Positions 1-63,325 are shown, counted from the stretch's first letter. The stretch: DNA of 64,000 bases from an uncultured Gemmatimonadaceae bacterium (GCA_963829055.1 CAWHHI010000010.1:32001-96000), one strand, 5' to 3'. Made by a program: numbers and translations. Notes: a model not told the origin generated them from the letters alone.

Positions 1-2505
1 CGGCGTGCTGCTTGGGGCCGAGCGCTTCCTGTCCGAGATCCGGGTCACGGCGAGTCTCCGGCATCCGAACCTCCTGCCGCTGTTCGACTCCGGAGAAGCG
101 GGTGGGCTGCTGTACTACGTCATGCCGCTCATCGATGGATCGACGCTCCGCGCGCGACTCCAGCGTGAGCGGCAGCTGCCCGTGGACGAGGCCGTACGCA
201 TCGTGCGCGTGATCGCAGGCGCGCTCGACTATGCGCATCGGCAGGGCGTCGTACACCGCGACCTCAAGCCGGAGAACATCCTGCTGCAGGATGATCAGCC
301 GCTCGTCGCGGACTTCGGGATCTCACTCGCCGTGACGCGGGCCGCGAGCTCGCAGCGGACAACCGCCGGCATTTCGTTAGGCACGCCGAAGTACATGAGT
401 CCGGAGCAGGCCGCCGGCGCCTCCGATGTGGACGGCCGGAGTGACATCTACTCGCTGGCCTGCGTGCTCTACGAGTTGCTGGCCGGCGAGCCGCCGTTCA
501 CCGGCGACACCGTTCAAGCGGTGATCGCCAGAGTGCTCGCCGAAGCACCGGCCAGCGTACGGACGCTTCGTCCGGGCGTTCCTGCTCACCTCGATGCGGC
601 CCTCACGCGCGCGTTGGCCAAGCTCCCGGCAGACCGGTACGCGACTGCCCGTGAGTTCGGCGATGCGCTCGTCCTCGCGTCGACGGCGGCCTCCGCGGAC
701 GTGCAGGCGACTGCCGCACCGTGGCGCAGTCCGGCCCGCCTGGCACTCGTGGCAGTCGCGACCGTCGCTGTCCTGAGCTGCTGTCTGGCTGGCGACACGC
801 GCGCCCGCCGGCGACGTGTCACAGTTCGTCGAACGAGGCCTGATCGATCAGTCGATAAATAGCGCCGTCACGATCACGCCAGACGGTCGCGCGCTCGCGT
901 ACACCGGACAGGCGGGATCCCGAGGTCCGCTCATCGTGCGGCCGTTGTCCCAGCGCCCGGAGCGCGCGCTGCCCGGCACCGAGCGCGCGATCCTGCCGTT
1001 CGTTTCGCCAGACGGCAGGCGGCTCGCCTTCGTCTCGAGCGACGACAAGCTCGGGTCGGTATCGATCGAGGACGCGTCGGACGCCGACGGCGCCGCCGGC
1101 CGGTTGCTACGCCGTGTCTTCCGAGCGACGGAGCCGTGGCGGTATGGCAACGGCGCCTGGGTCGGGGATAGCCTCATCGTAACCGAATGGGACTCTACCG
1201 GGCTATCGACCGGCCTACCCGCGGAAGGGCCGCGGCGTCGGCTCACGCGGGTGGATCGTGCACGGGGCGAAGTGAAGCATGCCGCTCCCCTCGTGATTCC
1301 GGGCGCGCGGGCCGTGGTGTTCACCGTTAGGCATCGCGGTGGCCCTGGCGTTGTCAGCGGACCTCTCGCGATCGCCAAGCTCGATCCCGGAGCCGCCACG
1401 ATATCGCCGCACGCGTTGCTCGGTGTGACGGCTCGTCGCGCCATCGCGGTCGTGGATGGCTGGCTGCTCTTCATCACGACGGACGGCAAAGCCATCCAGG
1501 CCGTTCGGTTCGACCCCGAGCGCCAGCGAATCTCCGGGAGCCCGATCCTGGTGCTCGAGGATGCACTGGGGAACCTCGAATCGGCAGCGCTCGCCGACAA
1601 CGGCACGCTGCTGTACGTGCGCCGGCCACGGACCAACAGCGTGGTGTTCATCGATCAGCGAGGAGCGGTGCGCCCGCTGTTCGAGAGTACCCGTGGATCG
1701 TTCATGTACCCACGGGTGTCACCGGACGGCAAGCGGTTCGCAGTACAGATGACGTCGGCCGAGGACGACCAATCGAATGTTCTGGTCTATGACATCGCGT
1801 CGCGAGCTCCTACGCCGCTCACGAGCACCGGTATGGCGCTCCATCCGACGTGGACGCCAGACGGACGCCGGATCGTTTTCATGTTACGTGGCACCCGCGA
1901 GCTCGCGTGGCAGCCGGTTGACGGCCAGGGCGCGGCCGAAAAGATCCCGCTGACCGGGGGCTCATTCGCGCCAATGGTGTCGCCCGACGGCCACTCCATT
2001 GTCTTTCAGCGCGGTCGTCAGAGCGCGATCGATGCGAGCATCTCGGTCTGTCCCCGTCGTCGGAGGGATCGCGCCGCGCCCGGTGCTCCAGGATCCTGCC
2101 AACAGCTACGAGGCCGCCGTATCGCCTAACGGGCGCTGGCTGGCGTATACGTCGAACGTATCGGGGCGCGCCGAGGTCTACGTGCGAGCGTTCCCGGGCC
2201 CCGGGCTCGCCGTGCAGGTCTCCGACAGCGGCGGAAACGAAGCAGCATGGTCGCCCGATGGCCAGAACATCTACTACCGTGCCAAGCGCGGGTTCATGGA
2301 GGTGGCAGTGACGACGCCGGCGCTTCACATCACGTCGCAGCGCCGGCTGTTCAAGGACACGTACAGCGGCAGCATGCAGCATCGGAATTATGATGTCGCG
2401 CCCGACGGATCGGGATTTTTCATGATCTCGCAGGAAAACCCCGAGGCCGTCGTCACGCTCAATTGGGTGACGGCGTTGCGGACGCAGCTGCGGGGCGCGC
2501 GTTAG
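1..2505 (+). CDS. Hanks-type Ser/Thr protein kinase with TM segment and C-terminal TolB/PD40-like beta-propeller; 5' end outside window, about 2 frameshifts
   Basis: ORF 5..862 has HRDLKPEN, DFG and GTPKYMSPE. ORFs 816..2129 and 1999..2505 continue with repeated SPDG/WSPDG propeller motifs. Frame changes near 780-820 and about 2040. Confidence 0.85.
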
Positions 2506-2507
2506 GC

Positions 2508-5471
2508 GTGTTTCGCGAGATTCCCTGGGCAGCACTGGCGCTGCTGCTCGCGGCCCGCGTGGCGATCGCACAGACGGGCACGCTCGTCGGCCGGGTGACG
2601 AATGCACTCACCGGGGCCGCCGGTGACCACGGCGGAGGTGACGGTCACCGGAACCCCGTTGACAGCGCGGGTAGACGCGGACGGGCGATTCCGCCTGCCT
2701 AACGTCCCGATCACCGCCCACGAGGCACGCGCACGTGGGTTGGGCTACCAGCCGAGCCACCGTCACGTTCTCGCTCACGGCCGACGCGACCGCAGCCGTC
2801 GCGATCCCGATGACCGCCAGCACGATCGAGCTGGATGCCGTCATGGTCACCGGCGCCGTGGGCGACACGCGTCGACGAGCGGTCGGTCATTCGGTCGCGG
2901 TCGTGAACGGGAGGGAAATCGTCGGCCGATCCGCCGTCGCGAACCTCACGGAAGTCCTCCAGGCCAAGGTCCCGGGACTCACTGTCGCGCCGACGTCCGG
3001 CACCGTCGGCACGGCAGCGAGCTACCGACTGCGAGGCGCGGGGTCGCTCGGCGCCTCGAACACGCCGACGATCTATGTGGATGGCGTGCGAGTGAGCGCG
3101 CGCAGCCAGGGCAACTATGACGTCTTCGGGCAATCGACGACGGCGCTCGATGCCATCAGCCCAGCGGACATCGAGTCGATCGAGGTCATCAAGGGACCGT
3201 CGGCGTCCACGCTCTACGGGGCCGAAGCGGCGGCGGGCGTGATTCAGATCTTCACGAGGAAAGGCCGACCGGGACGAACCCGATGGGACGCTCGTGTCGA
3301 GACCGGGCGGTCCGACTGGGACGAGCGCTCGCGGCCGGAGAACTTCGCGGTGGTGACGGCCGCGCGCCGCGACAGTGTCGCGGACTACCCCGGCTTCCAG
3401 GGAAAGGCGTTAGGCGATCTGGTTTCATTCCGGCCCATGTCGGACGGCCGGGCGCTTCGCGGCGCCGACCTGTCCAAGCTCGTGCTCTCGGCGAGCGGCG
3501 GGGCCGAGCGATACACCTTCTTCGTATCCGCGGCCCGAACAAGGGAAGAGGGTGTGTATCTCAACAACTACTCCAACCTCACGTCGGCTCGGGCGAATGT
3601 CACGCTCGTCCCGACGAACACGCTCAGCTTCACCACGAACGTCTCGCTCAGCCGCACGCATCTCCGGCTGCCACTGAGCGACAACGCCGGTCCGTATGGC
3701 CTGATGGCCAGCTCGTACCTCGCGGTACCGGGGAAGCTGTACCGGACGTCAGGCGAGCAGAATTACTCAGCTGATCAACCCGGAACAGGCCGCGGCGTAC
3801 GACAATCAAACACGGGCCGACCGATACACCATCGGCGCGAGTGCTGACTACACGCCGTACTCCTGGCTCAGGAATGCGGTCCGTGTAGGACTGGACGCGA
3901 ACGTCGGACAAGCGGATCTGTACTTTCCGCCAACCGTGTCGCCCGCGTACGTCGCGCGCGTGAGCCTCGGTCTCGACAATTCGAAGGGTGTCATTGCGCA
4001 GGGGCGGCCACTCACGCACGATATCACGGTGAGCTACGACGGGACCGCGACGCGCCGCTGGTCCGAGCGGCTCGTGTCGACGACATCGTTAGGCATGCAG
4101 TACCTCGCGACCACGTTCCGGCGCACCGATGCGTTCGGGGTCGATTTCGGCAGTGGCGACCTGCGTTCGATCACGTCCGCCGCGGTGAGAACCGGCAGCG
4201 ACTCGTTGTCCGAGCAGAAATCCGTCGGGTTCTACGGGCAGGAGCAACTGTCGCTCGACGATCGGCTGTTCGTCACGCTGGCCGCACGGGTGGACAACAA
4301 CTCCGCGTTCGGCCCGACGTTGCACCGGGTGGTCTATCCGAAGGCGTCGATCTCGTACGTGATGTCGGACGAGCCGTACTTCAAGGTGCCTGGAATCAGC
4401 GCACTGCGATTGCGCGCGGCGTGGGGGCAGGCGGGCAACTCACCGGGTCCGTTCGATGCCACCCGTTCTTACGTCTCATCGGTCGTCACGACGAGCAGCG
4501 GTTCGACGTCCGCGCTGCGGTACGCATCGGCTGGCAATCCCGACCTTCGTCCGGAGCGCGGCTCCGAGATCGAGCTCGGCTTCGAGAGCGCATTCCTCGG
4601 CGGACGCGCATCGCTGGACGCCAGCTACTACCAGAAGACCACCCACGACGCGCTCATCCCGGTCCCTGTCGCTGCATCCACCGGCTTCGTCGGGGACCAG
4701 CTCACGAACCTGGGCGAGATCTCCAACAGGGGAATCGAGCTCCTGCTGAGAGGCACTCCCGTGCAGCACAGGCGGCTGACGATCGACGCGTCCATTTCGC
4801 TGGTGACCAATCACAACGAGCTGGTCGCGTTCGGATACGACCGCGGGCCGCTGATCTTCGGCTTCAACGCACTCTCGCAGCGCCATCAGGAGGGGTTTCC
4901 GCTCGGCGGTTTCTGGGCGCAGGTGCCGCAGTACAATCCGGACGGAACGCTCGTGGTCGTCGATGGCCGCCCGGTACCCGACACGGCCAGTGCGTACGTG
5001 GGGTCGTCGGTGCCGACGCGCGAGATGTCTTTCTCCACCGGCATCCTGCTGTTCGGCCGTCTGCGCGTCTTCGGGCTCGCCGACTACAAGGGTGGGCACT
5101 ACCAGTTCGACGTCACGGACTGGCGGCGTGACGTTGCCGGCGTCTCGTGGGAGACGGTGAATCCCGCCGCGGATCCGGACGACGTCCTGGTGCGTCAGTC
5201 CGGGAATCTCACGGCGCTGCATATCCAGAAAGCGGATTTCGTCAAATGGCGCGACCTGTCGATCAGCTATGCGATAGCAACACGCGCCGTACACCGGGTC
5301 GCTCGATCGGCGACGATCACGGTCGCAGGGCACAATCTCACGACGTGGACCCGATATCGCGGCGCAGACCCGGAGGTCAACTACAGTGGACCAACGCGGT
5401 TCAACCGCGATGATCTGTGGACCGCGCCGCAGACGCGCCGCTACTCCGCCGCCGTGGCTCTCTCCTTCTGA
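2508..5471 (+). CDS. SusC/RagA-like TonB-dependent outer membrane receptor (frameshifted)
   Basis: GTG at 2508 with signal peptide, carboxypeptidase-regulatory-like N-domain, plug motif DIESIEVIKGPSASTLYGAEAAAGVIQIFT, barrel motifs NPDLRPE and GADPE, C-terminal Phe. Spread over ORFs 2463..2702, 2602.., 2735..3847 and 3936..5471. Confidence 0.85.
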
Positions 5472-5473
5472 CG

Positions 5474-6781
5474 ATGACATCGATCATTCCACGCGTCACG
5501 GCCGCGAGGGTGCAGGTGGCGAAAACGATGCGGCACGCCGCCGTCGCCTCCTTCATCGCGTTAGGCGCCGGCGGATGCGATGGACTGTTGAAGGTGAACA
5601 ACCCCGCATCCTTGCAGGAAGGACAGCTCGATGATCCCGTGCTCGAGCCGTTCATCATCAACGGCGTGATCGGCGAGTTCCAGTTCGCCTACACGAACTA
5701 CGCGTTCTTCTCCGGCGTTCTTGCCGATGAGGGGTTCCTGGATCACATCAACGTGAACCTCCGCGAGTTCGCGCTCCACAACTTCAACGACATCAACGCC
5801 ACGAACGAGTCGGTGTATGGGAGTCTCCAGCAGGCCAGACAGGCCGCGGACAATGCCGTTGAGCGCGTGAAGAAGATGCTCGGAACCAGGCCGGACGTGA
5901 ATCTCAGCGTCGCCCGCGCGCTGATTTACGGCGGCTATTCATATGTGCTGCTTGGCGAGGGGTTCTGCGAAGCGCCCGTCAATCTCAGCGCTCCGCTCCC
6001 GTCCACAGAGCTCCTCACGAGAGCCATCGCCCACTTCGATGAAGGCATCGCTGCGGCCACCGCGGCGACGACGCCCGCGAACGCGGTGGCGGCGCAGGAT
6101 CTCATTTCGCTGGCACGGGTTGGTGCGGCGCGCGCGTCGCTCAAGAAGGGCGACCTGGAGAAGGCCCGCACGTACGCCCTGGCGGTGCCCGACGGCTACG
6201 AGCGGTTGGCCTACTACTCCGCGAACTCCGCCCGTGAGAACAATGCGATCCAGATAGCCGTACGACAGGCCCAGCCCTGGCTCGGCATGCAGGCGAGATT
6301 TCGGAGCCTCGACGATGCGCGGGTGCCGCAACCGCCGACGCCGCGTGTGTCGCTCGCCGGAAACTCGATCTTTCCGCCCCAGAAGCCGTCGATGTACGGG
6401 GGTTGGACCGGAAGACTGCCCGGCCAGCCGATCGACGTCGCCAGCAGCGTCCGATTCGCCAGCGGTCTGGAAGCTCGGTACATCGTGGCGGAAGCCGATG
6501 GTCCCGGCGCTGCCATGCTGACCTTCGTCAACGGACGCCGCGCCTCGGCCGGCAAGCCGCCCGTCAACCTCGACGGCGCCGCCCTGGTGACGGAGTTCCG
6601 GATGCAGCGGGCCTTCGACTTCTACCTGACCGGGCAGCGGCTGGGCGACCTGCGTCGTTATGCCGACGCAGGAACCGATCTTTTCCCGACCGGGAAGTAC
6701 CCGACGCTGCGCGACTCGTACGGGGCCATGCACTGCTTCATCGTCCCGCTCAGCGAGAAGTCGAGTAACCCGAACTACTAG
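5474..6781 (+). CDS. SusD/RagB-like lipoprotein
   Basis: ATG 2 nt after the SusC stop; lipobox GAGGC; QRAFDFYLTGQRLGDLRR and terminal PLSEKSSNPNY typical of SusD C-termini. Confidence 0.85.
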   Translation: MTSIIPRVTAARVQVAKTMRHAAVASFIALGAGGCDGLLKVNNPASLQEGQLDDPVLEPFIINGVIGEFQFAYTNYAFFSGVLADEGFLDHINVNLREFALHNFNDINATNESVYGSLQQARQAADNAVERVKKMLGTRPDVNLSVARALIYGGYSYVLLGEGFCEAPVNLSAPLPSTELLTRAIAHFDEGIAAATAATTPANAVAAQDLISLARVGAARASLKKGDLEKARTYALAVPDGYERLAYYSANSARENNAIQIAVRQAQPWLGMQARFRSLDDARVPQPPTPRVSLAGNSIFPPQKPSMYGGWTGRLPGQPIDVASSVRFASGLEARYIVAEADGPGAAMLTFVNGRRASAGKPPVNLDGAALVTEFRMQRAFDFYLTGQRLGDLRRYADAGTDLFPTGKYPTLRDSYGAMHCFIVPLSEKSSNPNY

Positions 6782-6895: not shown

Positions 6896-9747
6896 ATGTC
6901 GTTTTGCCGTGGACTGATGATCATGAGCGTCGTCCTCGTGCCGTTAGGTACGACCCTCCCACCACCACTTCTCGCGCAAGGCGGTACAGGTACGATCCGT
7001 GGGCTCGTCAGTCGATCCACCGCCGATTCGCCCGTTCCCGGTGCCCAGGTGTTCATCGTCGGGGGAAAGCTTGGTGCCGTTACCGGGAATGACGGTCGGT
7101 ACACGTTCTCCGAGGTGCCGCCCGGAACACACACGGTCCGCGTTCGTGCGCTCGGATTCCAGCCGATCGAGAAGACCGTCGAGGTCACCGCTGGTCAGGC
7201 AGCTACCGCGGACTTCGTGGTGACGTCGGCGCCGATCGCGCTCGACGAAGTCGTCGTCACCGGCACCGCCGGCTCGGCGCGCAAGCGCGAGGTCGGCAAC
7301 TCGATCAGTCAGGTCAAGCTGTCGGAGACTCCCGAGGTCACGAGCAACGTCTCGAATCTCATCTCCGGACGCATGGCTGGCGTGAGCGTATCCGGCGGCA
7401 CCGGGAACGCGGGCGCGGGATCCTCGATCCGTCTGCGCGGCACGACCAGCGTCGCGCTCTCGAACCAGCCGCTGATCTACGTCGACGGCGTCCGCACGCG
7501 GAGCGATGAGTATCCCCGCAACGGCATCTTCACCGGAACGACGCAGCGCGGCGCCAACGCGTACGGCAGTCCGCTCAACGACATCAATCCCGAAGACATC
7601 GAGCGCATCGAGATCGTGAAGGGCGCGGCCGCGGCCACGCTGTTCGGTACCGACGCCGCCGCGGGTGTCATCCAGATCTTCACGAAGCGCGGCGCCAACG
7701 GCAGCGCCAAATGGAATACGCAGTTCAACACCGGCATCAGCAAGCTGCAGCAGTTCGGTACGGACTCGGTCCCGCTGCTGTTCATGGACCCGTTCGTCCG
7801 GAACGGCGTGCGCTACGGCGGGTCGGCGCAGGTGTCGGGCGGTGCTGGAGACGCGCTGCGCTACCTCGTGTCCGGCGGCGCCGACCTGACGCAAGGCGTG
7901 CTGCCTAACGACGACGAGAAGAAGTATCAGCTCCGCACCAACATGGACTTCCTGCCGGTCAAGAAGATCGCCATGGGCGTGAGTGTGGGATACACGAACA
8001 ACCTCGTTTCGCAGACGCCCGCCGGGAACAACGCGCAGGGGATCACGCTCAACGCGTTCCGCCGCGACCGGAATTACTTCGCGAACGCAAACCCGGACAC
8101 GATCCGCCAGGTGCTCCAGCAGCAGCTCAAGAGCAACATCGACCGCTTGATCATGGGCACGACCATCACCGCGACGCCCATCGCGAACTTCTCCAGCCGG
8201 TTCACGATCGGATACGACCGCGCCGCGGTCGACAACCGCAACGTGCGCCCCTACGGCTTCCCCGCCGTACCGCTCGGCGTCATCCAGGATCAGCGGTGGG
8301 CGAACAACACGCTGAGCACCGACTGGGTGAACAGCTACGACTTCAATGTGAGGCAGGATCTCAAGATCACGGCGTCCGCGGGCACGCAGTACGTGAACTC
8401 GCTCGTGAGCGATGTGGTGGGCTACAGCGAGAACTTCGCGACGCCAGCCGATCCGACCGTCGCCAGCGGCTCGCTCAAGAACGCGGATGAGAATCGCCAG
8501 CGCGTCATCACCGGCGGCGCGTTCGGGCAGGCGCTGGTCGGGTTCAAGGATCGATACTTCCTGACCGTCGGCGCGCGCATCGACGGCAACAGCGCATTCG
8601 GCGAGGACTTCGGATTCCAGACCTACCCCAAAGTGAGCGGGTCGTGGGTGATCAGCGAGGAGCCGTTCTGGCTGTCGTCGTTAGGTAGCCTCAAGCTCCG
8701 CGCCGCGTACGGCGCGGCGGGCCGAGCGCCGGGCGCCTTCGCCGCGGTGCAGACGTGGACCGCGGTTGGATGGGGCGGCCAACCCGCCGTTCGTCCGAAC
8801 AACTTCGGTAACGCTGACCTCGGCCCGGAGCGGACGACCGAGCTCGAGCTCGGCTTCGACCACAGCGTATTCGACGGCCGCTTGAACATCGACTTCACGT
8901 ACTTCGACGCGACCACCACCGACGCGCTGTTCAACGTCCGATCCATCCCGACGAACGGCTTCCTCAACAACGTGCTCAAGAACGTCGGCGAGATGAGCAA
9001 GTCGGGAATCGAAGTCGCCGTCACCGGCACCGTGTGGGACAGCCCGAGACTCGGCATCAACGCAGGCCTGAACCTGAGCACGAACCACAGCAAGGTCGTG
9101 AGCCTCGGCGGCGCGCCGGCGTTCTCGGTCGGCAACTTCGGCTGGGTGATCGAAGGAGAGCCGGCGCCAGTGCTCCGCGGAAAGGTGATCCGCAATCCTG
9201 ACGCGGTCGGCGTCGCGCCCGACACGTCGTCGAACTACGCGTTCGGACCGAGCCAACCGACGCGCATCATCGGCGGTTCACTGAGCATCCGTACGTGGCG
9301 GAACATCACCATCTCGGCGCGCGGCGAGCACCAGGCGGGCGCGTACATCAACGAAGACGCGTCGTACCAGGCGATCTCGCGATCGGTGCTCTGGCCGACG
9401 TGCTTCGACGCCTACGAGAAGCAGGCGGCCAAGCAAGGCGCTGACCGTCAGGGAGACACTCATGTGCGTTCCCGCGAACGCGCGGCAGGACATGTTCATC
9501 TTCAAGGCCGACTTCTTCAAAGTCCGCGACATTACGCTCACGGTTCCGCTCGGCCACGCGATTCCGAGATCAACGAGCAGCTCGATCGTATTCTCGGCGC
9601 AGAACATTTTCAGGAAGAACTACGGCATGCCAATGTTCGATCCCGGAGATGTCCGGGAACGATGGCTTCAATCCGACCGTGCGATATATCTCGGAGCATA
9701 TCCCGGCGCCCGCAGTGTTCCTGACTTCTCTTCGCGTCTCGTTCTGA
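6896..9747 (+). CDS. Second SusC/RagA-like TonB-dependent receptor (frameshifts near 9430 and 9645)
   Basis: GGAGG RBS before ATG 6896; plug motif NDINPEDIERIEIVKGAAAATLFG; NADLGPERT; the C-terminus continues as ADFFKVRDITL, then ...FLTSLRVSF-stop at 9747. Confidence 0.85.
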
Positions 9748-9758: not shown

Positions 9759-11012
9759 ATGACCATGACGAAATTCGAGACGATCCGTCGTACGGCGTTC
9801 ACCCTGGGCTCCGCGGCGCTGATCGCGGCCCTGTCGGCGTGCGAGCTCAAGGTCAGCAATCCCGGACCCGTTCAGGCCGACGCGCTCGACGACCCAAAGG
9901 CTCTGACTTCTGTCGTGAACGGCGCTGGACGCGACCTCGCGGAAGCAATCAACTGGACCGCCTACACCGGCGGCGCGGTGGCGCTCGAGATCTTCCCGGG
10001 TGGATCCACCGGCTCGTTCGGTATCACGCCCCGCCAGCAACAGGGCAAGCTCGTCGACGATGACGACGACACGCACTGGAACTTCTCACAGCGCGCTCGT
10101 TGGACCGCGGAGGATGCGGTGGCGCGCGGCAAGACCGTACTCGGCGCGGCAGCGGCGAACAACGCGACCGTCGCACAGGCGCTGGTGTGGGCCGGCTTCG
10201 CGAATCGCCATCTCGGAGAGAACTTCTGCGAGGGTGTGATCAACGGCGGCGCTCCGCAGCCGTACACGGTCTATCTCGAGCGGGCCGAGGCGAACTTCAC
10301 GGAGGCGATCACCGTCGCGGGTGCCGCGAACAACGCGAACCTCGTGTCGGCTGCGACGGCTGGCCGCGCGTCGGTGCGACTGCTCCGCAACAACCTGACG
10401 GGAGCGGCGGCGGATGCGGCGGCGATCCTGAGCCCATTCACGTATCGCATGCCGTACTTCTCGACGGACCTCGATCAGTACAACCGCATCTACTGGGCGT
10501 CCGCGAATCAGCCGTACCGCGCGCATACGGTGTGGAACACGTTCTACGACAGCTATCGCAAGAGCACGCGTGACCCGCGCGTTCCGTTCGACAGCAGTGC
10601 GACGCAGTTGGTGGGCGACGCGGCGGTCGGGAATCTCGGACGCGTGCGCTGGTACTTCCAGACGAAATACCCGGCGCAGTCCTCACCGATCAACCTGGCG
10701 AGCGGTTGGGAGATGCGTCTCATCGAGGCCGAGGCGAAGCTGGTGGCAGGCGACATTCCGGGGGCGATGACGTCGATGAACCTGCATCGCGTCGCGCTGG
10801 GCCTAACGCCGTGGACAGCGGCGAACGCCACGGACGCATGGACGGCACTCAAGCGCGAGCGTGGTATCGAGCTCTGGTTGGAAAGCCGGCGGCTTGGTGA
10901 CTTCCGTCGCTGGGCAGCGCTCTCGCGGCCGGGAACGTCCGACGACATGACGGGGCGCGACCTCTGTTTCGCCACGCCGCTCTCGGAGAAGCAGACGAAC
11001 CCGAACTACTAG
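9759..11012 (+). CDS. Second SusD/RagB-like lipoprotein
   Basis: Signal peptide with lipobox LSAC; ERGIELWLESRRLGDFRR; terminal PLSEKQTNPNY; clearly paralogous to 5474..6781 (LGE(G/N)FCE motif). Confidence 0.88.
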   Translation: MTMTKFETIRRTAFTLGSAALIAALSACELKVSNPGPVQADALDDPKALTSVVNGAGRDLAEAINWTAYTGGAVALEIFPGGSTGSFGITPRQQQGKLVDDDDDTHWNFSQRARWTAEDAVARGKTVLGAAAANNATVAQALVWAGFANRHLGENFCEGVINGGAPQPYTVYLERAEANFTEAITVAGAANNANLVSAATAGRASVRLLRNNLTGAAADAAAILSPFTYRMPYFSTDLDQYNRIYWASANQPYRAHTVWNTFYDSYRKSTRDPRVPFDSSATQLVGDAAVGNLGRVRWYFQTKYPAQSSPINLASGWEMRLIEAEAKLVAGDIPGAMTSMNLHRVALGLTPWTAANATDAWTALKRERGIELWLESRRLGDFRRWAALSRPGTSDDMTGRDLCFATPLSEKQTNPNY

Positions 11013-11674: not shown

Positions 11675-12273
11675 TGTCATCCCGAGGAGGGAATGACGGC
11701 ATGCTTTGGCGTCTCTGGATCCAACAGCGACGCAGAATTCGCAGGCGGGCGCTTCGCGGCCGCAACGCAGAAGGCCGCAGAAAACTGCAACGGCCACGGC
11801 AACTGCTATTCAGCGCGGAGGGCTGCTTCGGCAACCATCGAGACGGACCGCTCCGACAGCACATCCAGAACCCAGAGTGTTGAACTGATTGGGCGGAAAC
11901 GACTGAAACGGCCCAATGTGATCGCGACCGGTACAGATCGCGCAACGGGGCCTTTTGAAAAAGGGAGAACGGCCTCGGGAGACCAGTGCGTCCCGAGGCC
12001 GTTCTCCTTCAGTCGCGGCTCGTTGCGCCGCCGACTCTCCCGGCATCAGGTGCGATCCGCCCGATCCGATGTTTCCGGCCGTTTCCGTTCCCACCCTCGG
12101 TTCTGGATGCATGGCGAAGCAGTGCTCCGCGTCCTCTGCGTCGCTGTTGGAATGGCGCGCCCGACTGTACCTGACGCGAGACCGGCTACACGGTCCTCAC
12201 AGGAGATCCCTCGCGGTCGCTCGGGATGACAGCACTGTCGCTCGGGATGACGGCACTGTCGCTCGGGATGACA
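11675..12273. repeat. Compound nested palindromic element (REP-family-A arms enclosing other inverted repeats)
   Basis: TGTCATCCCGAG at 11675; AGATCCCTCG then three copies of CGCTCGGGATGAC with 21-bp period at 12204-12273; internal perfect IRs 11720-11736/12135-12151 and 11862-11872/12099-12109. Confidence 0.8.
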
Positions 12274-20640: not shown

Positions 20641-20712
20641 AGATCCCTCGCTTGCGCTCGGGATGACAACGGCTGACGCTCGGGATGACAACGGGCCGGC
20701 GCTCGGATGACA
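20641..20712. repeat. REP family A1 right arm, triplicated
   Basis: AGATCCCTCG followed by three CGCTCGG(G)ATGACA units. Confidence 0.8.
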
Positions 20713-24558: not shown

Positions 24559-24597
24559 CTTCGAGAAGATCCCCGTCGCTCGCCGCTCGGGATGACA
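24488..24597. repeat. REP family A1 element with 7-bp-repeat flanks
   Basis: TGTCATCCCGAG...CTCGGGATGACA terminal IR; flanks contain GGAAGGAGG and CCGCCGT-type tandem repeats. Confidence 0.85.
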
Positions 24598-28155: not shown

Positions 28156-29815
28156 CGCAACGCGTACATATGCCGAGAGCGAGACCGTCGATTTCGTGAT
28201 CGTCGGATCCGGCGCCGCGGGCGGCGTGCTGGCGAAGGAGCTCTCGACCGCCGGCTTCGATGTCGTCGTGCTCGAGCAGGGTCCATGGCAGCAGCCATCG
28301 CAGTTCACGCACGACGAGCTCGCGGTCGAGCGGCAGTTCGAGATGCTCAACATCGCGGTCGAGCCGGTTCAGACGTATCCGAACGACAGAAGCCGAACCG
28401 GCGAAGCCGGAACACCGGGCGCGCTGCTCGCGTACCGCCGGGGCGTGGGCGGCAGCAGCGTGCACTTCGCCGCGAATTACTGGCGGTTCCGCCCGATCGA
28501 CTTCAACGAGCGTTCGCGGTGGGGATCGATCAGCGGCACCGGGTTCGCCGACTGGCCGATCACGTACGAGGAGCTCGAGCCGTACTACACGAAGGTCGAT
28601 TGGGAGATCGGCGTGTCCGGCGCCCCGGGGCCGTTCGATGCACGCCGCGCTCGCGGCCTATCCGCTCCCGCCGCTGCCTAACAAGTCGTCCGGCGTGCTG
28701 CTCGAGCGTGCCGCGAGCAGGCTCGGCCTGCACGCCCAGGTGTCGCCGATGGCGATCCTCTCGAAGCCGTACGACGGCCGCTCAGCGTGCATGGCGTGTG
28801 GACACTGCTCGCTACTATGGGTGCGAGTTCGGCGCGAAGTCGTCGACGCTCGCGACGGTGATCCCGAAAGCGGTCACGACCGGTCGGTGCGAGATCCGCG
28901 CCGAGTCTACCGTCTTCCGCGTCGAGACGAACACCAGGGGACGTGCGACCGGCGTCGTATACTGGGATCGCGCGGGCAAGGAGCGGCGCCAGTCCGCTCG
29001 CGCTGTCGTGCTCGCGGCGAACGGGGCCGAGACGACTCGGCTGCTGCTCCTGTCGACGTCGCCGGCGTTTCCGCACGGTCTCGCGAACTCGAGCGGGAAC
29101 GTCGGTCGCTACATCATGTTCAACGGCCACGCGAGCACGTTCGGCCGCTTCGAGCATCCGCTGAACGAGTACAAGGGCGCCGTCGCGAGCCGCGTCGTGC
29201 ATGACTTCTACGAATCGGACGCGAAGCGTGGCTTCTACGGCGGCGGCGGCATCGATGCGCGCTTCCCGTACGGTCCGATCATGTTCGCCGCTGACCGAGA
29301 CTGCCGCCCGATCGTGCCGGCGTGGGGACGCGAGTACAAGCGAACGCTTCGCGACTACTACACGCACTCGGTCCGGTTCATGGCGCACCTCACGTCGCTG
29401 CCGGTCGCGACGCAACACCATCTCGCTCGATCCCGAGCACCGGGATTCGTGGGGACGTCCCGCGTTGCGCCTAACGTACCGGGACCATCCGGACGACATG
29501 AAGGCGGAGCACTGGTTCCACGATCGGACGCAGGAGCTGATGGAAGCGGCCGGTGCGACGCGACGTCTGGCGAGTGCCGATTCTCCCGATCGGATGGCGG
29601 CGTTCACCTGCTCGGCACCGCGCGCATGGGCAACGATCCGCGCGATTCGGTGGTCGACCGCTACCACCGCGCGCACGACGTGCCGAACCTCTTCATCTGC
29701 GACGGCAGCAGCTTCGTCACGTCGGGCCGCGGCCAGCCGACGATGACGATCCAGGCGCTCGCGTTTCGCGCCGCCGAGCATATCGCGCGGCTTCGCGCGG
29801 TCGCACGAGATCTGA
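28152..29815 (+). CDS. GMC family flavoprotein oxidoreductase; several frameshifts
   Basis: VIVGSGAAGG, VGGSSVHF, WPITYEELEPYY, CxxCGxC, HLLGTARMG, NLFICDGSSF, PTMTIQALAFRAAE. Confidence 0.88.
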
Positions 29816-29904
29816 CTAGGCCTTGGGAAGAGGAAGGAGGCCTGAGGAAGGAGGGCGGAGGGCGGAGGGCGGAGGGCGGAGGGCGGATGGCGGAGAAACG
29901 GCGG

Positions 29905-35133: not shown

Positions 35134-35251
35134 TGTCATCCCGAGCGGCAGCGAAGCGGCAGCGAGGGATCTTCCGTGAAGGCATCGTAGCCGGTCTGGC
35201 CACGAGTACTTCACAGAAGGTCCCTCGTCGCTGCCGCTCCTCGGGATGACA
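35134..35251. repeat. REP family A1 element
   Basis: Terminal IR plus the conserved core GCCACGAGTACTTCAC. Confidence 0.85.
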
Positions 35252-39936: not shown

Positions 39937-39998
39937 TCATCCCGAGGAGCGCTAGCGACCAGGGACGTTCTGTGCCCAGGCTTCCGCTCTCGGGATGA
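39937..39998. repeat. Short REP family A1 derivative
   Basis: TCATCCCGAG...CTCGGGATGA. Confidence 0.7.
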
Positions 39999-40106
39999 CC
40001 CGTTGGCAGAACGCGGACAATTGACGACCTCCGCATTGTGGTGAAGATTCGCGGGCAGGTCACCCAGCGAAGCTGCTGCACCGGGGCGTTCCCAGGTGGA
40101 GAACCC

Positions 40107-42373: not shown

Positions 42374-42479
42374 TGTCATCCCGAGCGCAGCGAGGGATCT
42401 TCTCGAAGGTCATCGTGGCCAGTCCCGCTACGATGACATCACGGAAGGTCCCTCGTCGCTGGCGCTCCTCGGGATGACA
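42374..42479. repeat. REP family A1 element
   Basis: TGTCATCCCGAG...CTCGGGATGACA between convergent genes. Confidence 0.85.
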
Positions 42480-45343: not shown

Positions 45344-45856
45344 ATGACGCATTTCAGGGAAGACCTCACACCCACGCGCGACGGCGGGCTCGTCGCGATC
45401 GCGTGCTTCAAGCTCCTCAAGGCCGCCGCGCTGATCGCACTCGGACTCGGCGCGTTCAAGCTGCTCAATCCCGCGACGGTCGATCGCCTCACGGGTTGGC
45501 TGCTGCACTTCACTCTGTCGTCCGGCCAACAGTTCCTCGATAGGGCCATCGATCTGCTGAGCACGCTGACCCGGCGGCGCGCGACGGCGCTCGGGGTTGG
45601 CGCGATCGCGTACGGATCGCTGTTCGGCGTCGAGGGGGTCGGCCTCTGGAAGGGGAAACGGTGGGCCGAGTATCTGACGGTTGCCACGACGGGGCTGTTG
45701 ATCCCGGTCGAGATCTACGAGCTCACGAGACGTTTCACCGCCCTGCGCGTGGCGGCGCTCGTGGTCAACATCGCGGCGGTCATCTATCTGGTCTATCGCC
45801 TGCGACACCCACGAGCTCAGACGCCGACCGCTGTCATTCCGAGCGGAGCGCCGTAG
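45344..45856 (+). CDS. DUF2127 family membrane protein
   Basis: IACFKLLK, EGVGLW..KRWAEYLTV..T..LIPVEIYE, NIAAVIYL. Confidence 0.88.
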   Translation: MTHFREDLTPTRDGGLVAIACFKLLKAAALIALGLGAFKLLNPATVDRLTGWLLHFTLSSGQQFLDRAIDLLSTLTRRRATALGVGAIAYGSLFGVEGVGLWKGKRWAEYLTVATTGLLIPVEIYELTRRFTALRVAALVVNIAAVIYLVYRLRHPRAQTPTAVIPSGAP

Positions 45857-45977
45857 GCGCGCAGTCGAGCGAGTCGCTTGCTTGAGTCCGAGATAGAGCG
45901 GCTAAGGGCCCTCTACCGAGACGACCACGATTCCTCGACTCGCGCCGCGCCGCTTGGCGGCTCCGCTCGGAATGACA
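45832..45977. repeat. REP family A2 element overlapping the DUF2127 3' end
   Basis: TGTCATTCCGAG...CTCGGAATGACA. Confidence 0.85.
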
Positions 45978-45981
45978 TCCG

Positions 45982-46488
45982 TCATCGCAGCGCGAGCCGG
46001 AACGCCTGCTCGCAATCCTCGCCCAGATTGGCGAACGTCGCCGCGTCGTCACCCGTGACCGGACGGAATCCGAGTCGCGTGTAGAGGCGGATCGCGTCGG
46101 TCATGACGTGCGCCGTTTCGAGCACGACGGCGTCCAGCCCGAGCGCGCGCGCATGGTCAATGACGCGCTGGACGGCGAGTTTACCGACGCCAAGCCCTCG
46201 CGCCGATCGGCGGAGGTACACCTTCTTCAGCTCCACCGTCCGGTTCGCGCCCGGCCGCCATCCGAGGACACCCACCGGTTCGTCATTCGACGCGGCGTAG
46301 ATAAGTTCGAACGCGCCGCCACGCGCGTCGTAGTGCGCCTCGAGATCGAGCAGGTCCTTGTCGGACGTCTCCAGCAACAGGCCAAGCCCGTGCTCGGCGA
46401 GCGCTTCGCGGACGATTGCCTGCGCGGTCGCGCAGTCGGCGTTCGTCGCCCGCCGAAATTCCAGCTTCGCTGTCGGCCGCTCGATCAT
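45982..46488 (-). CDS. GNAT family N-acetyltransferase
   Basis: ELKKVYL..SARGLGVGK, LET...AIRLY.RLGF. Confidence 0.9.
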   Translation of the reverse strand: MIERPTAKLEFRRATNADCATAQAIVREALAEHGLGLLLETSDKDLLDLEAHYDARGGAFELIYAASNDEPVGVLGWRPGANRTVELKKVYLRRSARGLGVGKLAVQRVIDHARALGLDAVVLETAHVMTDAIRLYTRLGFRPVTGDDAATFANLGEDCEQAFRLALR

Positions 46489-48813: not shown

Positions 48814-48972
48814 TGTCATTCCGAGCGGAGGCCGTCAGGCCGCAGTCGAGGAATCGCGATCGTCCCGATAGAGCGGCCCCTCTACCTGTATGAGCGCGAT
48901 TCCTCATGCGCCCACCTTCGGCGGGCACCCGGCTGTCGCTCGCTCGGAATGACACCCTTCGCTCGGAATGAC
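48814..48972. repeat. REP family A2 element with a duplicated right arm
   Basis: TGTCATTCCGAG...CGCTCGGAATGAC twice. Confidence 0.85.
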
Positions 48973-49879: not shown

Positions 49880-52800
49880 CTAACGTCCGGCGCTCGCACG
49901 CTCGAGCCGGGCGAGCTCCGCCCGCACATGCGACACCTCGGGCACGAGCGCCGGCTCGGGATTCGAACGCCTGATGAGGTAGATCCGATACGCCCGGATC
50001 GCGGCTTCCCTATCGCCCACGAGCGCGGCGAGACGTCCTGCTTCTCGCTGCCACGCCGATTCGTAGTGATTCGGGCCGGTACCACGAACTCGCCGCCTCA
50101 AGGCCGCGAGCGCGCGACGCTGATCCCCGCGTGCTTCCCACAGGCGAGCAGCCACACGACCCGCAATCGTCGTGAAGCGGGCGTCGTGGTGACCGAATCG
50201 CGTGGCGCTATCGAGACGCGCCAGCACGTCGCTCGCGTCCGGGCGTCGCTCCAGAGCTGCCACCTGCGCATCGAGCAGGAGCGCGCGCTCCTCCGTCACC
50301 TCGGCCAGCCAGCTGCTGTCCTTTGGCGGCACGTAGGCACGGAGCCAGGAGACTGTGCGGCGAGCAACGGACGCGTCGCCCATCGACAACCGATACTGAG
50401 CGAGTACGAGTGCGGCGTCCACGCGGTCTGCGAGCGCGACGTCCGCCCTCGGGTCCTTGCTGTCACCCGCGGCTCCGACCGGCGACGACGTTCTCAACGC
50501 CGCGGCGACGATCGGTTCGAGCGTCCGCGCCGCCGCTGCGCCGGCAACGGAATCACCGTCGGCGAAAACCGATGCGAGCGCGACCTCGCGCGCGACCGCG
50601 GGAGTCGCGAGCATGTCGGCCGAAGCCGCAGCAGCTTCGCGAGGACGTCCTCGCTCTATCGGGACACGCAAACGCCAGATGCGCGAGTTGCAGTCGCTCC
50701 TCTGACGTGATCGTCTGCGGGGCGAGCAGATCGAGCGCGCGCTGGGCGACGTCCAGCCCGCGATGATTGTACAAGGTGCCAGGGACGATCCCCGCGAGGA
50801 CCGGCCGGGGAAGGCGCGGCATTTCCGCACGGAACGCTCGCGCGCGCACGCTGTCGGCCTCGAGCAATGCGAGCTGCAGCCCGTAGAACCCTTGCGCGAG
50901 CGCAGGGATTCGGCGCTGGCCAATGGCGAACAGTTGCCGGTAGTGAGCGGAGTCACCTGCTTCGGAGTAGAGGCCCGACAGGTGGATGTACGACGGAGTG
51001 AAGGCGGAGTCGAGCGCGATGGCGCGGGAGAACGCGCGGAGCGCGCGCTCGTCGGCATCGGCAATGCCAAGGATCCCTCCTCCGTGGTAGAGCGCATCGC
51101 CGAGGTCGAACCAGCCTTCCGCGTTGTCGGGCGCGAGACTCGTTAGGCGCTCCGCGGCGTCGAACCACTCGGAATACGTCTTGGGGGCGGGGTACCTGGG
51201 CCCCAGCGTCGCCTCCGCAAGCGCAGCATCGGGTCGGGAAAGCCGAGCACGGCCACGCGCGAGGATGTGTCCACCGACCGCGATGGCGCGTGCCTGGTCC
51301 GCCGCGGTCTGACCGCCCCATCCCGCCGTCCGCACCAGGCCAAGCGCGGCGAGCGTGAAGGAAGAGTCGAGCTCCACGGCGCGGAAATAGGATTGCATGG
51401 CAGCGCTCGCGTTCCCCGCGCGATACAACGATCGCCCGTCCAGGTACGCCCGGAGTGCCGGCAGTGATGTGCTCGTCAGAGCGGCGAGGCGAGGCGCGGA
51501 CTCGCCGGCGCCTAACGATCCCAGCTGGGCCGCGAGTCGATCGACGAGCGCGGGAAGGCTGTCGGCGGGTCCTGTCGCGGTTGCAGGCTCGCGGCCCGGC
51601 TGAGCCGGGACGAGTGTGGCGGTAAGGGTGAGGTTCGCGCTCGTACCGGCGAGCTCCCCCAGGATGAGTCTCCCCGCGCCGATCGCGTGCGCGACACGCA
51701 ATGCGTCCTCGTCGACGAGATCGCCATCGCCCCTGGCTGCTCGATGCCACGCGCCCAGCGTGGTGCGAGGGTCGATGGCCCGCAGACCTCCGATTCCTGC
51801 CACCTTCGCGGCCAGCAAGTCCACCATGCCGTCGCGGAGGTAGTGCAGCGATGGATCGGCCCCGGACACGCGGAACGGGGCGATCGCGACGACGTTCAGG
51901 CTGGGATCTACAGGCGCGGCCCGACCGCGCCACCAGGCTGCTCCGGCGCCTAACGCGCCGGCCAGCAGCGCGAGCGCAATGGGTGCGCGCCACCTCGAGC
52001 GCGCCGGCGACGCCGCACCTGGCCGGGCTTGGGGACTCGACGACTCCGGCGACGAGCCGATCGTATCGAGCAGTCGCAGGACCTCCGCGGCGGTCGCCGG
52101 CCGATCGTCCGGACGCTTGGCGAGCAGTCGCATGACGAGCGAGCCAAGGGCGGCTGGAACGTCGGCGCGATGCGTCACGACATCGGGCGGTGTTTCCGCG
52201 ACGTGCGCCGCGATGACCGCCTGCCCTGTTCGATCGCCGAACGGCAGTCTTCCGGTGAGCGTCTCCCACGCAAGCACGCCCAGGGCATAGAGGTCGACGC
52301 GGTGGTCCGCGGCGGGATCGGCGAGCGCCTGCTCCGGCGCCATGTAGGCCGGCGTGCCTAACGCCATTCCGCGCAGGGTCATGCTACTGGTCGAGGGCTC
52401 CCTCGCGCTCTCAGCGCCCGCGCTGCGGGCACCCGCCTCGGGAGCCTCGGGACGGTGACTGCCGCTCGCGGCGGTCAGTGCCTTCCCAATGCCGAAGTCG
52501 GCGACCAACGCGACGGGACCGGAGAGCAGCACGTTGTCCGGCTTGATGTCCCGATGCACGACGCCTTCACCGTGGGCGTACGCGAGCGCGCGCGCGACGT
52601 CGCGCAGCAGGCTCACGACGTCGGCGACTGGGAGCGCCCCTCCCTGCGCAAGCCGGTGGCGCAAGGACTCCCCGCGCACGAACGGCATGGTGTAGTACGG
52701 GAGTCCGCCGGCGGTCCCCGCGGTCAGGAGCGGGACGATGTTGGGATGCTGCAGCCGCGCCACGAGCCTCACTTCACGCGTGAACCGATCGGCCGACAGC

Positions 52801-52979
52801 CCTTCCGCCAACTCACGCGGCAGGACCTTGAGGACGACGGTCCTGCCTAACGCTGGCTCGTGCGCCACGAAGACGCGGGACATGCCACCGCCGCCGAGCT
52901 CACGCTCGATGGTGTAGGCCGTGCCCAACGCCGATTGGAGGTGGGCGCCGAAGTCGGATTGCATTGGCGGGCCGGTCAC
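49880..52979 (-). CDS. Hanks-type Ser/Thr kinase with TM, TolB_N-like and TPR domains; frameshift near 50670
   Basis: LGGGGMSRV, HRDIKPDN, DFGIGK, GTPAYMAPEQ; TSTSLPALRAYLDG, AVELDSSF TPR region. Confidence 0.9.
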
Positions 52980-58000: not shown

Positions 58001-58111
58001 GTCATTCCGAGCGGAGCGAGAAACCCTGCACTCTTACTAGAGCGGATTGCCTCTCTACCGGGACACCAAGGATTCCTCGCTCCGCTCGGAATGACAACCC
58101 CTCGGAATGAC
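58001..58111. repeat. REP family A2 element with a duplicated right arm
   Basis: GTCATTCCGAG directly after the TGA stop; CTCGGAATGAC twice. Confidence 0.85.
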
Positions 58112-58118
58112 GGCAGGC

Positions 58119-59878: not shown

Positions 59879-61773
59879 ATGCCTATGCCAGCTGTCCTTC
59901 GCTCCCTGCAACGCCTTCTGTTCCGCATATCCCGCTCGGCTCTCGTACTAGCGGTCGTCACGACGCATCCTCGCGCGCACGGTGATGGCGCAAGGCAGCG
60001 CCGAGTACGAGCGCCGCGAGCTGAAGATTCCGATGCGCGACGGCGTCACACTGTTCGCTGTCGCGCTCATCCCCAAGGGGGCGACCGCTCCGCTCCCCAT
60101 CCTCCTCATCCGCACTCCGTTCAGTGCCGCTCGCGAGTTCGGGAGCACCACGTTGCCGGTGTCGCTCCGCGAGCTCGGAGAGGACGGATACATCTTCGTC
60201 TCGGAAGACATCCGCGGACGGTTCGGATCGGGAGGGACCTTCGTCTCCCTGAGACCTCAACGTGACCCGCGCGACGCGCGCGGGGTGGACGAGTCGACCG
60301 ACGCCTGGGACACCGTCGACTGGCTCGTCCGCGAGCTGCCTAACAACAGCGGCAAGGTCGGCGTCCTCGGTATCTCGTATCGCGGCTGGCTCGCCGCCCT
60401 CGCGGGCGTCGGGGCACACCCCGCGATCAAGGCGATCTCGCCGCAGGGGCTCGTTGCCGACGTATGGCTCGGCGACGATTTCTTTCATCAGGGGGCATTC
60501 CGCCAGGCCCAGGGCGTTGCGTACGCGGCCTACATCGAGGGGACCAACGGGCTCTCGATCCCCGACTACGACCAGTACGACTTCTACCGCAAGCTCCCCA
60601 CGCTCGACACGCTGGCCAGGGCGACCGGCGTCGCCGACCTCCCGTCATGGGTGGGCTTTCGCACGCACCCGAGCTACGACGCCTACTGGGAGGCGCGCGC
60701 GCTCCAGAACGTGTACCGAACGCCCGAGGTCCCGACGCTCGTCGTCGGCGGCTGGTGGGATGAGGAAGACCTCCTCGGTCCGCAACTCATCTATCGCACG
60801 CTGGAACGCGCGGACACCGGCCGGCGCAACTTCCTCGTGATGGGACCGTGGTCGCACGGCAGCTGGTCACGCCCCGGCGGCGATTCGCTCGGTCCCGTTA
60901 GGCTCGGCGGGAAGTCGGCGGACTACTTCCGAGCCAGCATCCAGCGTCCATGGTTCGCCCACTACCTGCACGGCAAGGGCGACGGCCGCTTCCCCGAGGC
61001 GCAGGTCTTCGAGACCGGGGCGAACGAGTGGCGCCGCTTCGACGCCTGGCCGCCGAAGAATGCCATTCCGCGCCGACTCTACCTGCGCGGAGAACGGGCG
61101 CCTCGCCTTCGATCCGCCGGCAGCGTCCACCACGTCGGGCAGCGTTAGGCCTGCTCGCGACCCGATGCACGCCAACGACTTCGACGCGTTCGTCTCCGAC
61201 CCCGCCCATCCCGTCCCGTACATCCCCCGTCCCGACAACGGCGACGGGTGGAGCACGTGGCTGGTCCAGGACCAGCGCTTCGTCGACAACCGCCCCGACG
61301 TCCTCACGTGGACGTCGGAGCCGCTCAGCGAGGATCTCACGATCGCCGGTGACGTCGTCGCGCACCTCTTCGCGTCCACCACCGGCACCGACGCCGACTG
61401 GGTCGTGAAGCTCATCGACGTCTATCCCGACAGCGTCGCCGATCGCCCTCGGCTGGGCGGCTATGAGCTCATCGTCAACGCCGACATCTTGCGGGGTCGC
61501 TACTGGAAGGGCTTCGCGCGCGCGACGCCGATCCCGGCGAACACGGTAACACCATTCACGGTGGACCTGCACGGGCAGCTGTACCGCTTCCGGAAGGGGC
61601 ATCGGCTCATGGTGCAGGTGCAGAGCACGTGGTTTCCGCTCTACGATCGCAACCCGCAGCGCTTCGTGCCTAACGTTTTCTCCGCGAAGCCCGACGACTT
61701 CCAGACGCAGACGCACCGCGTCTGGCATACGGCGACCCAGCCCTCGCACCTCAGCATCGCCGTGTTGCCCTGA
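59879..61773 (+). CDS. CocE/NonD family hydrolase (alpha-amino acid ester hydrolase-like); frameshifts near 59975 and 61095
   Basis: IPMRDGVTL, RTPF, DIRGRFGSGG, GISYRG, GDDFFHQGAF, GPWSHG, QVQSTWFPLYDRNPQ. Confidence 0.9.
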
Positions 61774-62361: not shown

Positions 62362-62364
62362 CGT

Positions 62365-63325
62365 TCAGTTCCGCCGTCCGTACTGGTCGTACCAGTCCAG
62401 CACTCGGCGAGCACGCAGCGTGACCCATCGATTCGGCTCACCGACGGTGCCGGCCAGCTCCTCGTGAAGGGTGTCGCGGTGTCGCACGTCGAGCAGCCAG
62501 CGGCCATCGCCCTGGCGCCGTTCGACGCACGATCGCGACCGCCTCCTCGACATGGCTGTCGGGCCTACACGCCAGCCGCGCGCAGATAGTCCAGCGCACG
62601 CAGCACGTCGTAGTGCCAGAGCGGCGGAAACGCGAACTGCGTCCACTCGCATTGATGATCTCGCCGGTCGACAACCGTCGGAGCAGACGCCGCTCGAGGA
62701 GATATTCCTCGCCGCGCTTGCGCGCGTCCGTCACCGCCGGCGCGGCGCCGAACGCCTGCTCGAACGCGAGCAGCCCTTCGAGCACACAGATCGTCGTGTG
62801 GAACGACGAGCGCACCGAGCCGCGCTCGGCCTCGCAGTTCCAGCCGCCGTCCGCGAGTTGTTCACTCAGCAGGCGATCGACGAGCCGATCGCTCCGCTCG
62901 CCGAAGTACGCGCCTAACGCGACGACTCGGCCGTTGATGCACGGCTCGACCTCGCCCTCGAAGAACGGCGAGTCTCCGAACTCGGGTCCCCAGGTGACGT
63001 GGTCGCGAACGAGATCGATCGCCGCTCGCACGCGCGCGCTCGCGGGGTCGACACCCAGGTCGCGCAGGAACACGCAGCGTGTACATGTTCGACCACCAGA
63101 ACGGCGTGGCGATGCCGTCGCCCCACTGGCCGTCGGGGCGCTGCTGGTCGAGCAGCCGCGGGCCCCAACCCTCGTCGCGACCCGCGACCGCTCGGCCGCG
63201 ACGATCTCGGCGGGCGTGTCCGTGAGATCGCGCATGACCTGCCAGCGGATCGACGGGTCGGCGTCGAGGAGCCAGTCGATTACGGGGTCGGTCGAGGATC
63301 GAGGGTACTCGCTAGTCGGGCTCAA
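62365..63325 (-). CDS. Prenyltransferase/squalene-cyclase-like alpha-alpha toroid hypothetical protein; frameshifted
   Basis: WLLDADPSIRWQVMRDL, EVEPCING, QLADGGWNCE, SSFHTTICVLEGL, GEPNRWVTLRARRVL. Confidence 0.8.

Follow-up and report, generated by a model that had tools for sequence, protein, structure and literature searches.

Hyper-abundant genome words comparable to the octamer described here are, to our knowledge, known only from the Neisseriaceae and Pasteurellaceae, in which they serve DNA uptake, and from the cyanobacteria, in which the word is HIP1. The uptake word of Haemophilus influenzae (USS) is described as arising by point mutation; 23% of its copies lie within 100 bp of another, many of them as terminator pairs, and uptake is not increased by a second USS less than 100 bp away (PMC7811141). 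In both Haemophilus and Neisseria the frame use of the uptake word follows preferred codons (PMC2817400), and HIP1 has now been linked to transformation too (PMC13756078).

Here we analyze a 64-kb stretch of DNA from an uncultured Gemmatimonadaceae bacterium (GCA_963829055.1, CAWHHI010000010.1:32001-96000; hereafter the window), in which the non-palindromic octamer CGTTAGGC (reverse complement GCCTAACG) occurs in 51 exact copies, against a shuffle mean of 0.96 and a largest shuffle of 4. These copies are dispersed over 375..62919, with 27 on the plus and 24 on the minus strand. Literature searches by the letters of the octamer, by its reverse complement and by lineage plus motif recovered no description of it; supplements and most subscription papers lay outside the scope of these searches, so k-mer tables there could hold it.

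Abundance and coding context of the octamer

Throughout, G-numbers label the genomes of our panel, G000 being the source genome, and C-numbers the contigs of the latter. The names of homologous proteins also assign G000 to the Gemmatimonadaceae. G000 is a draft of 20 contigs (86% complete), and its 7.78 Mb hold 5,004 copies of the octamer, 49 times the order-2 and 19 times the order-3 Markov expectation, with all 20 contigs represented and the strands balanced (2,547 versus 2,457 in the genome count). Six congeners assembled from short reads hold 2,501-5,112 copies each, and independent short-read (Logan) contigs span several sites, with few differences among the 40 of 1,117 difference rows listed. 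As these short-read contigs differ little at the sites and the short-read congeners are rich in the octamer, it is not an artefact of long reads, and its enrichment is confirmed as real.

All 17 positions named in the original prediction carry the octamer in the reading frame claimed for them. Fourteen of these frames follow directly from automatic gene calls, and the other three (2124, 2697 and 29469) lie in frame-split genes, in which the automatic call differed and matches to the Pfam models PD40, CarboxypepD_reg and GMC_oxred_C fix the true frame. Read as TTA-GGC (Leu-Gly), the octamer lies at 375..382 (plus strand) in the activation-loop SLGTP of a Ser/Thr kinase, at 52356..52363 (minus strand) in the ALGTP of a second kinase, whose gene (50553-52964, minus strand) holds five copies in all, and at 3408, 4087 and 5559 (3408..5566, plus strand) in TonB-dependent receptor genes and the next gene, all assigned by frame and domain. 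Val-Arg copies (GTT-AGG), assigned by frame, are found at 1325..1332 (plus strand) and likewise at 13249, 40438 and 60896. The Pro-Asn reading (CCT-AAC) occurs on the minus strand at 2124..2131, in a PD40 repeat of the ORF 1999-2505, where the copy doubles as the stop of an overlapping frame (816-2129); at 2697..2704, in the CarboxypepD_reg domain of the ORF 2602-3120; and, by frame and domain, at 7903..7910 in a SusC-like gene and likewise at 23016 and 47485. Leu-Thr copies (CTA-ACG), also on the minus strand, lie at 10801..10808 in a SusD-like gene and likewise at 15765, both by frame and domain, and at 29469..29476, by Pfam, in the C-terminal frame of a GMC oxidoreductase (29201-29746). Finally, the octamer supplies the TAG stop codon of the ORF ending at 61148 (61143..61150, plus strand), and likewise at 2500 (plus) and 54260 (minus).

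In the window, the genes at 816-2505, 2602-3847, 24655-27170, 28285-29955 and 59985-61773 are broken across overlapping frames, likely through long-read indel errors, and similar splits occur elsewhere in the assembly in pilB, Ku and both methylases. The window also contains an intergenic inverted-repeat family, independent of the octamer, with two spellings and members that often pair at a distance of 40-100 bp (11676-12273, 20657-20690, 24488-24596, 29905-30006, 33382-33498, 35134-35251, 39937-39999, 42374-42479, 45826-45983, 48815-48972 and 58001-58111), which we take to resemble REP elements of the RAYT-associated type.

Codon choice within the octamer

The original prediction held that the octamer overrides codon bias as a signal acting at the DNA level. 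In the 5,184 called genes that are 150 aa or longer, all four contrasts between codon and dipeptide are raised: TTA makes up 11.9% of Leu codons in Leu-Gly versus 0.5% elsewhere, CCT 39% of Pro codons in Pro-Asn versus 7.5%, AGG 8.0% in its octamer dipeptide (Val-Arg) versus 3.1%, and CTA 7.5% in its own (Leu-Thr) versus 2.0%. TTA, CTA and AGG are thus all commoner in the octamer dipeptides than outside that context. The override is dominant for TTA only, of which 1,162 of 2,480 codons (47%) lie inside the octamer, as against 527 of 3,660 for CTA (14%), 443 of 5,608 for AGG (8%) and 787 of 7,909 for CCT (10%); most CTA and AGG codons fall outside it. By frame, the 5,004 copies comprise 1,325 Leu-Gly, 935 Pro-Asn, 634 Leu-Thr and 509 Val-Arg readings, along with 378 that supply a stop codon (both stop frames being used), 65 that are ambiguous and 1,158 outside gene calls, the last an overcount because the calls come from a home-made caller (80% coding density) applied to an assembly with many frameshifts.

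Where the peptide makes a site eligible, the octamer occupies 1,157 of 5,025 Leu-Gly, 436 of 3,716 Val-Arg, 523 of 2,532 Leu-Thr and 779 of 1,353 Pro-Asn sites, whereas masked codon usage predicts only 1.5-13 occupied eligible sites per frame. Both kinases of the window do carry it at the equivalent position, each reading through LGTP (375 and 52356), as originally pointed out; genome-wide, an eligible [ASPT]-L-G occurs there in 16 kinases, of which 7 contain the octamer, versus 1,157 of 5,025 eligible Leu-Gly sites overall, and the LGTP copies are not special to kinases but simply eligible sites. A logistic fit over 12,423 peptide-eligible sites gave a slope of 1.03 on the neutral log-odds, with frame boosts (natural logarithms) of 6.9 for Leu-Gly, 6.4 for Val-Arg, 6.5 for Leu-Thr and 5.5 for Pro-Asn, which are somewhat inflated, most for Leu-Gly, because the neutral codon model masks the word family. 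This slope and these similar boosts are what would result from a single constant factor applied to the neutral probability of the octamer, the odds of which are up about 150-1,000-fold in all four stop-free frames where the peptide permits. Synonymous decay products are near absent: in the Leu-Gly frame, position 2 is changed at one site versus 1,157 intact. The similar boost in four frames, together with the use of both stop-codon frames, supports a DNA-level signal that is independent of frame.

Occupancy is also equal across gene classes (11 of 49 sites in the ribosomal-protein cluster, 117 of 524 in a core proxy and 2,767 of 12,053 in the rest), which agrees with the further suggestion that copies accumulate wherever the protein tolerates them. 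This suggestion does not extend to sites near another copy, where occupancy drops, nor to those gains that alter the residue. The Pro-Asn-[VADEG] peptide count is 1.65 times that of its reverse, with 1.28 for a control triplet. The spectrum of variants is graded, the first and last bases being loose and the centre strict, position 6 showing a weaker G-to-T change and position 4 a faint T-to-C one.

Spacing, strand and turnover

Neighbouring copies less than 100 bp apart number 71 of 4,984 versus about 316 expected, and eligible sites near another copy are occupied 0.1-0.2 times as often (a 5-10-fold drop within 100 bp), with recovery by 300-400 bp; four strong variants shun the octamer likewise, whereas control words do not. 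The fitted neighbour penalty is 3.25*exp(-d/131 bp), from which it follows that an adjacent second copy keeps about half of the advantage, and it is orientation-blind (3.0 versus 3.6 for the two relative orientations, log-likelihood gain 1.2). We infer that this orientation-blind spacing speaks against polar signals and in favour of a protein that captures double-stranded DNA within a local range. No clear short-range periodicity of the copies was detected. The G-rich strand holds 1,476 of 2,810 copies (52.5%), near neutral, and in this draft genome of 20 contigs no clear strand switch was seen across a dif-like site at C16:560798. This site, AT-rich and unlike the octamer, adjoins the GC-skew maximum (560910) and lies 19 kb from a XerC/D-like gene.

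Between congeners, DNA identity is about 78%, and at four-fold sites it is 51-55%. At orthologous sites with a permissive peptide the octamer is kept in 117 of 168 cases (70%), versus 11-38% for eight unrelated control 8-mers, and unshared sites mostly differ by one to four bases; based on this high retention and the few bases separating unshared sites, we conclude that the octamer arises by substitution and is actively held. Sites found in one genome only shun common sites, with 3 versus 24 expected within 200 bp. Some gains alter the residue (Ser to Asn, Ile to Leu); at a single IF2-like position the change from Ser to Asn is seen in G000 as well as in G014. The proximity of gains to losses is no more than suggestive of compensatory turnover (p 0.013 under a pooled null; 0.24, not significant, under a within-gene null).

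Distribution across genomes and phages

At least 300 copies are present in 12 of 40 relatives and in 8 of 200 genomes of the phylum, with 0 of 62 outside the order; these tallies of relatives and phylum, like that of integrases below, include the unpublished G013 as one word-poor row on which no claim rests. The word-rich genomes belong to three families, the listed copies are dispersed in both genomes inspected (G010 and G020), and the highest host average measured is 1.25 copies per kb (G014). When a conserved methylase was compared across 50 metagenome loci in a tree, the 22 rows rich in the octamer formed nearly one group (3 changes), this being a quick tree that carries a long-branch warning and leaves out 30 of 80 loci as short or ambiguous.

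A GTDB scan with an opposite-orientation pair of octamers yielded, among the 80 matches listed with DNA, 41 from Verrucomicrobiota, 29 from Gemmatimonadota and 10 from others, and those listed loci carry 0.73, 0.82 and 0.05 further copies per kb, respectively. Where named, the verrucomicrobial loci belong to Chthoniobacterales, Udaeobacter or Spartobacteria, and only 2 of 121 genomes of the class are word-rich, one of them being the genome used as the centre. In 300 kb of G225 (Chthoniobacterales) a T precedes 127 of 159 copies at the 5' side, which constitutes a dialect. In G225 the octamer is again read in those four frames and holds 18% of TTA codons, and the exclusion of close copies is weaker than in G000.

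One phage contig encodes a terminase, a portal and a scaffold protein and has 31 copies on both strands in 16,975 bp, a density of 1.83 per kb that exceeds any host average measured. A search with the portal protein of this phage matched only itself. Of the viral loci retrieved with the opposite-orientation pair pattern, 1 of 43 is word-rich, and most word-bearing loci from a separate search are same-strand runs resembling arrays or other repeats. Two low-GC viral contigs (L121 and L167) show same-strand runs of longer octamer-containing repeats, spaced at 108 bp in L167; these are repeats of another kind.

Three long stretches of 31-50 kb at contig ends in G000 (C11:1-46789, C6:5440-55037 and C6:591808-623330) are free of the octamer, as is the start of C4 (L005); two of these ends have a GC content of 0.70-0.73. 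They are likely to be foreign DNA or chimeric joins. At the start of C4 an integrase gene is cut by unrelated ABC-transporter DNA.

Search for a reader protein

Several candidates for a protein that reads the octamer were tried and rejected. The integron integrase occurs in 29 of 41 genomes, both rich and poor, and an extra tyrosine recombinase is disfavoured by the rich genomes G004 and G010, which have only two matches, taken as XerC and XerD. ComEC is found in 32 of 32 panel genomes and a ComEA-type HhH protein in 38 of 38, rich or poor alike, the HhH match in G000 itself being weak. Ku is present in 26 of 27 rich and 18 of 27 poor genomes, and an N6/N4 methylase in 30 of 53 with no pattern. 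Topoisomerase IB, a lead from cross-phylum BLAST, is encoded in 7 of 7 members of the genus, 6 of 6 rich Verrucomicrobiota and several poor genomes, and it was not found in the rich genomes G120, G130 and G164 (99-100% complete), G172, G210, G217, G036 and G040. Two topoisomerase IB genes of G000 (C4:50478-51122 and C19:85120-85710) recur in all 7 genus members, and one of them shares 53% identity with the only copy in G225 (Chthoniobacterales). A BLAST comparison of 1.1 Mb of G225, about 29% of its genome, with the G000 proteome gave no reader candidate among those listed of 460 shared proteins.

Among methylases, G000 encodes an orphan, conserved Type IIG/MmeI-like enzyme, an adenine methyltransferase about 1,060 aa long (C8:73551-76755), and a D12-class methyltransferase; no C5 or N6/N4 methylase was detected in G000 (86% complete) and no N6/N4 methylase in 6 of 6 congeners. 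The Type IIG-like enzyme (loci L473-L552) is widespread in Gemmatimonadaceae-like DNA, with its catalytic motifs intact in 50-51 of 51 rows, and is present in both word-rich and word-poor DNA, with 48 of 55 more distant loci lacking any copy of the octamer. Its target-recognition region scores 0.515 for distant-rich versus near-rich rows and 0.511 for poor versus near-rich ones, with 3 distant rich rows only. Of the competence and pilus genes, ComEC and DprA are present in G000, and prepilins and pilB/T/C-like genes were recognised by eye.

Likeness to integron attachment sites

The hairpins of attC sites range in size from 55 to 141 bp. The attC core is given as GTTRRRY, which the octamer fits (PMC5027507), and in the cassette arrays of word-poor relatives attC hairpins end with the octamer on their 3' side, this being the commonest attC end spelling in the arrays examined. 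Furthermore, the attC ends of G225 and G224 carry the same preceding T as the dispersed octamer. However, only 19 of the 5,004 copies in G000 are attC-like hairpin ends, 99.6% being without a hairpin partner by our scan, and a variant with A at position 7, common in arrays, has only 24 copies in the genome. The octamer thus looks like an attC end but is not an attC site. G000 does have, at C20:203600-209000, an integron integrase above the family cut-off, downstream of whose gene lie attC sites, the cassettes pointing either way; in addition, the flanks of four candidate solitary cassettes (on C9, C10, C12 and C20) read like the octamer or its variants.

Verrucomicrobia carry integrons (PMC4889954), and transformation feeds integron cassettes (PMC12614218). 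One speculative and decidedly doubtful scenario is that uptake receptors tuned to integron cassette ends evolved in two unrelated soil groups, fishing cassettes from environmental DNA, with molecular drive then spreading the end through genes and phages, each group in its own attC dialect, and leaving potential landing sites.

Proposed function and rival explanations

Based on the constant boost, the indifference to strand and gene class, the retention and the redundancy of close copies, we tentatively propose, by analogy with uptake words, that the octamer may be an uptake-sequence-like tag read by a protein as cells import DNA from their own kind, a reading that we favour as quite possible while stopping short of calling it probable. 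The octamer would arise by point substitution and be held against codon bias as a word of double-stranded DNA; a sequence-specific receptor, perhaps a variant of the pilus or competence machinery, would favour octamer-bearing fragments in natural transformation, and biased uptake with recombination (molecular drive) might then fix new copies. If the benefit lies in the rate of capture, a second copy within one binding or sliding range would add about half of the gain of a distant copy. The word-free contig ends fit an uptake tag, as newly acquired or foreign DNA would be without the octamer. Against such a tag, the profiled ComEC and ComEA-type HhH proteins do not track the octamer, exclusion is weaker in the Verrucomicrobiota sample, and the 130-bp range of redundancy is far shorter than typical transforming fragments.

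The density on the phage contig suits a benefit inside the cell at least as well as uptake, and it is conceivable, if on balance unlikely, that the octamer is bound in the cytoplasm by an abundant DNA-binding protein, a nucleoid organiser or a protective self-mark. One bound protein would serve about 100-300 bp, making nearby copies partly redundant, and phages would copy the octamer for the same treatment. Orientation-blind saturation over 130 bp, which is the scale of protein sliding or of DNA stiffness, suits such a site, as do the graded variants with their loose ends, single weak substitution at position 6 and strict centre; HIP1, too, has been argued to be selected for chromosome structure (PMC5861425). 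Yet most relatives lack the octamer, which sits oddly with a structural protein, short-range periodicity is not clear, and no candidate emerged among the listed proteins of the 460 common to G000 and the G225 sample. An improbable third reading, modelled on HIP1, has an orphan methyltransferase marking the asymmetric core, with methylation-linked repair creating and keeping the octamer. The conserved Type IIG/MmeI-like and D12-class enzymes would be at hand for this, and the strict six-base core presumably ends like MmeI-family targets; deviations of HIP1 likewise cluster at the first and last base (PMC4390886). The Type IIG-like enzyme is, however, also found in word-free DNA and its recognition region is no closer between rich loci, few as the distant ones are, C5 and N6/N4 methylases are absent from G000 as searched and N6/N4 from all six congeners, and a one-strand repair bias fails to predict redundancy between opposite orientations. 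That the copies are scars or landing pads of the integron integrase is very improbable and largely refuted: the spelling shared with attC ends in the arrays of word-poor relatives, the word-like flanks of the four solitary cassettes and the reported insertion of cassettes by IntI at genomic GWT sites (10.1101/2022.09.11.507474) speak for it, but hairpin ends and the position-7 variant are as scarce as noted above, the copies lie in frame in conserved genes and are kept far above neutral, and IntI is common in poor genomes and was not found in the rich G002, G004, G010 and G020 (79-93% complete). Scarcely credible is a polar signal of the Chi or KOPS kind, acting in recombination or chromosome segregation, for which one could cite the non-palindromic octamer and the slight excess on the G-rich strand; there is no clear strand switch at the dif-like site, and opposite-orientation neighbours suppress as strongly as same-orientation ones, which those of a polar signal would not.

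Comparison with known systems

A single word that subgroups of two major soil phyla have in common would add another system of hyper-abundant genome words. Since sister genera may be rich or poor, densities are graded and saturation over 130 bp can be measured, comparative genomics can test the long-standing question of drive versus selection. Beyond this, the octamer skews proteomes, points to the likely hosts of phages and can help to recognise contig ends of foreign origin in assemblies.

With Chi and KOPS the octamer shares over-representation and a non-palindromic form, but its enrichment is much stronger than Chi levels, and it differs in being without polarity and in its orientation-blind redundancy. 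HIP1 (GCGATCGC) is likewise a hyper-abundant octamer in genes, conserved beyond codon constraint and tolerant of end variants. Unlike the present word, HIP1 is palindromic and shows a 10-90 kb periodicity, where we find local exclusion over 130 bp (only short-range periodicity having been examined here); moreover, the octamer is patchy within its family, and no methyltransferase tracking it was found among the Type IIG-like and N6/N4 enzymes profiled. The integron attC core and inverse core share its spelling, including the preceding T in Verrucomicrobiota, whereas the octamer copies mostly lack hairpins, lie in frame in ordinary genes and have another variant spectrum. From the USS of Pasteurellaceae and DUS of Neisseriaceae the octamer differs in that its copies repel one another where USS and DUS pair in terminators, in that its commonest frame uses the rarest codon, and in being common to two unrelated phyla and matching the integron core. 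As this terminator pairing is not seen and the likeness rests on analogy, we do not file the octamer as a DUS or USS. With these uptake words it nonetheless shares the form of a short non-palindromic word at about one per 1-2 kb on both strands and in several frames, as well as an origin by point mutation, raised peptide counts, dialects, rarity in foreign DNA and the presence of competence machinery.
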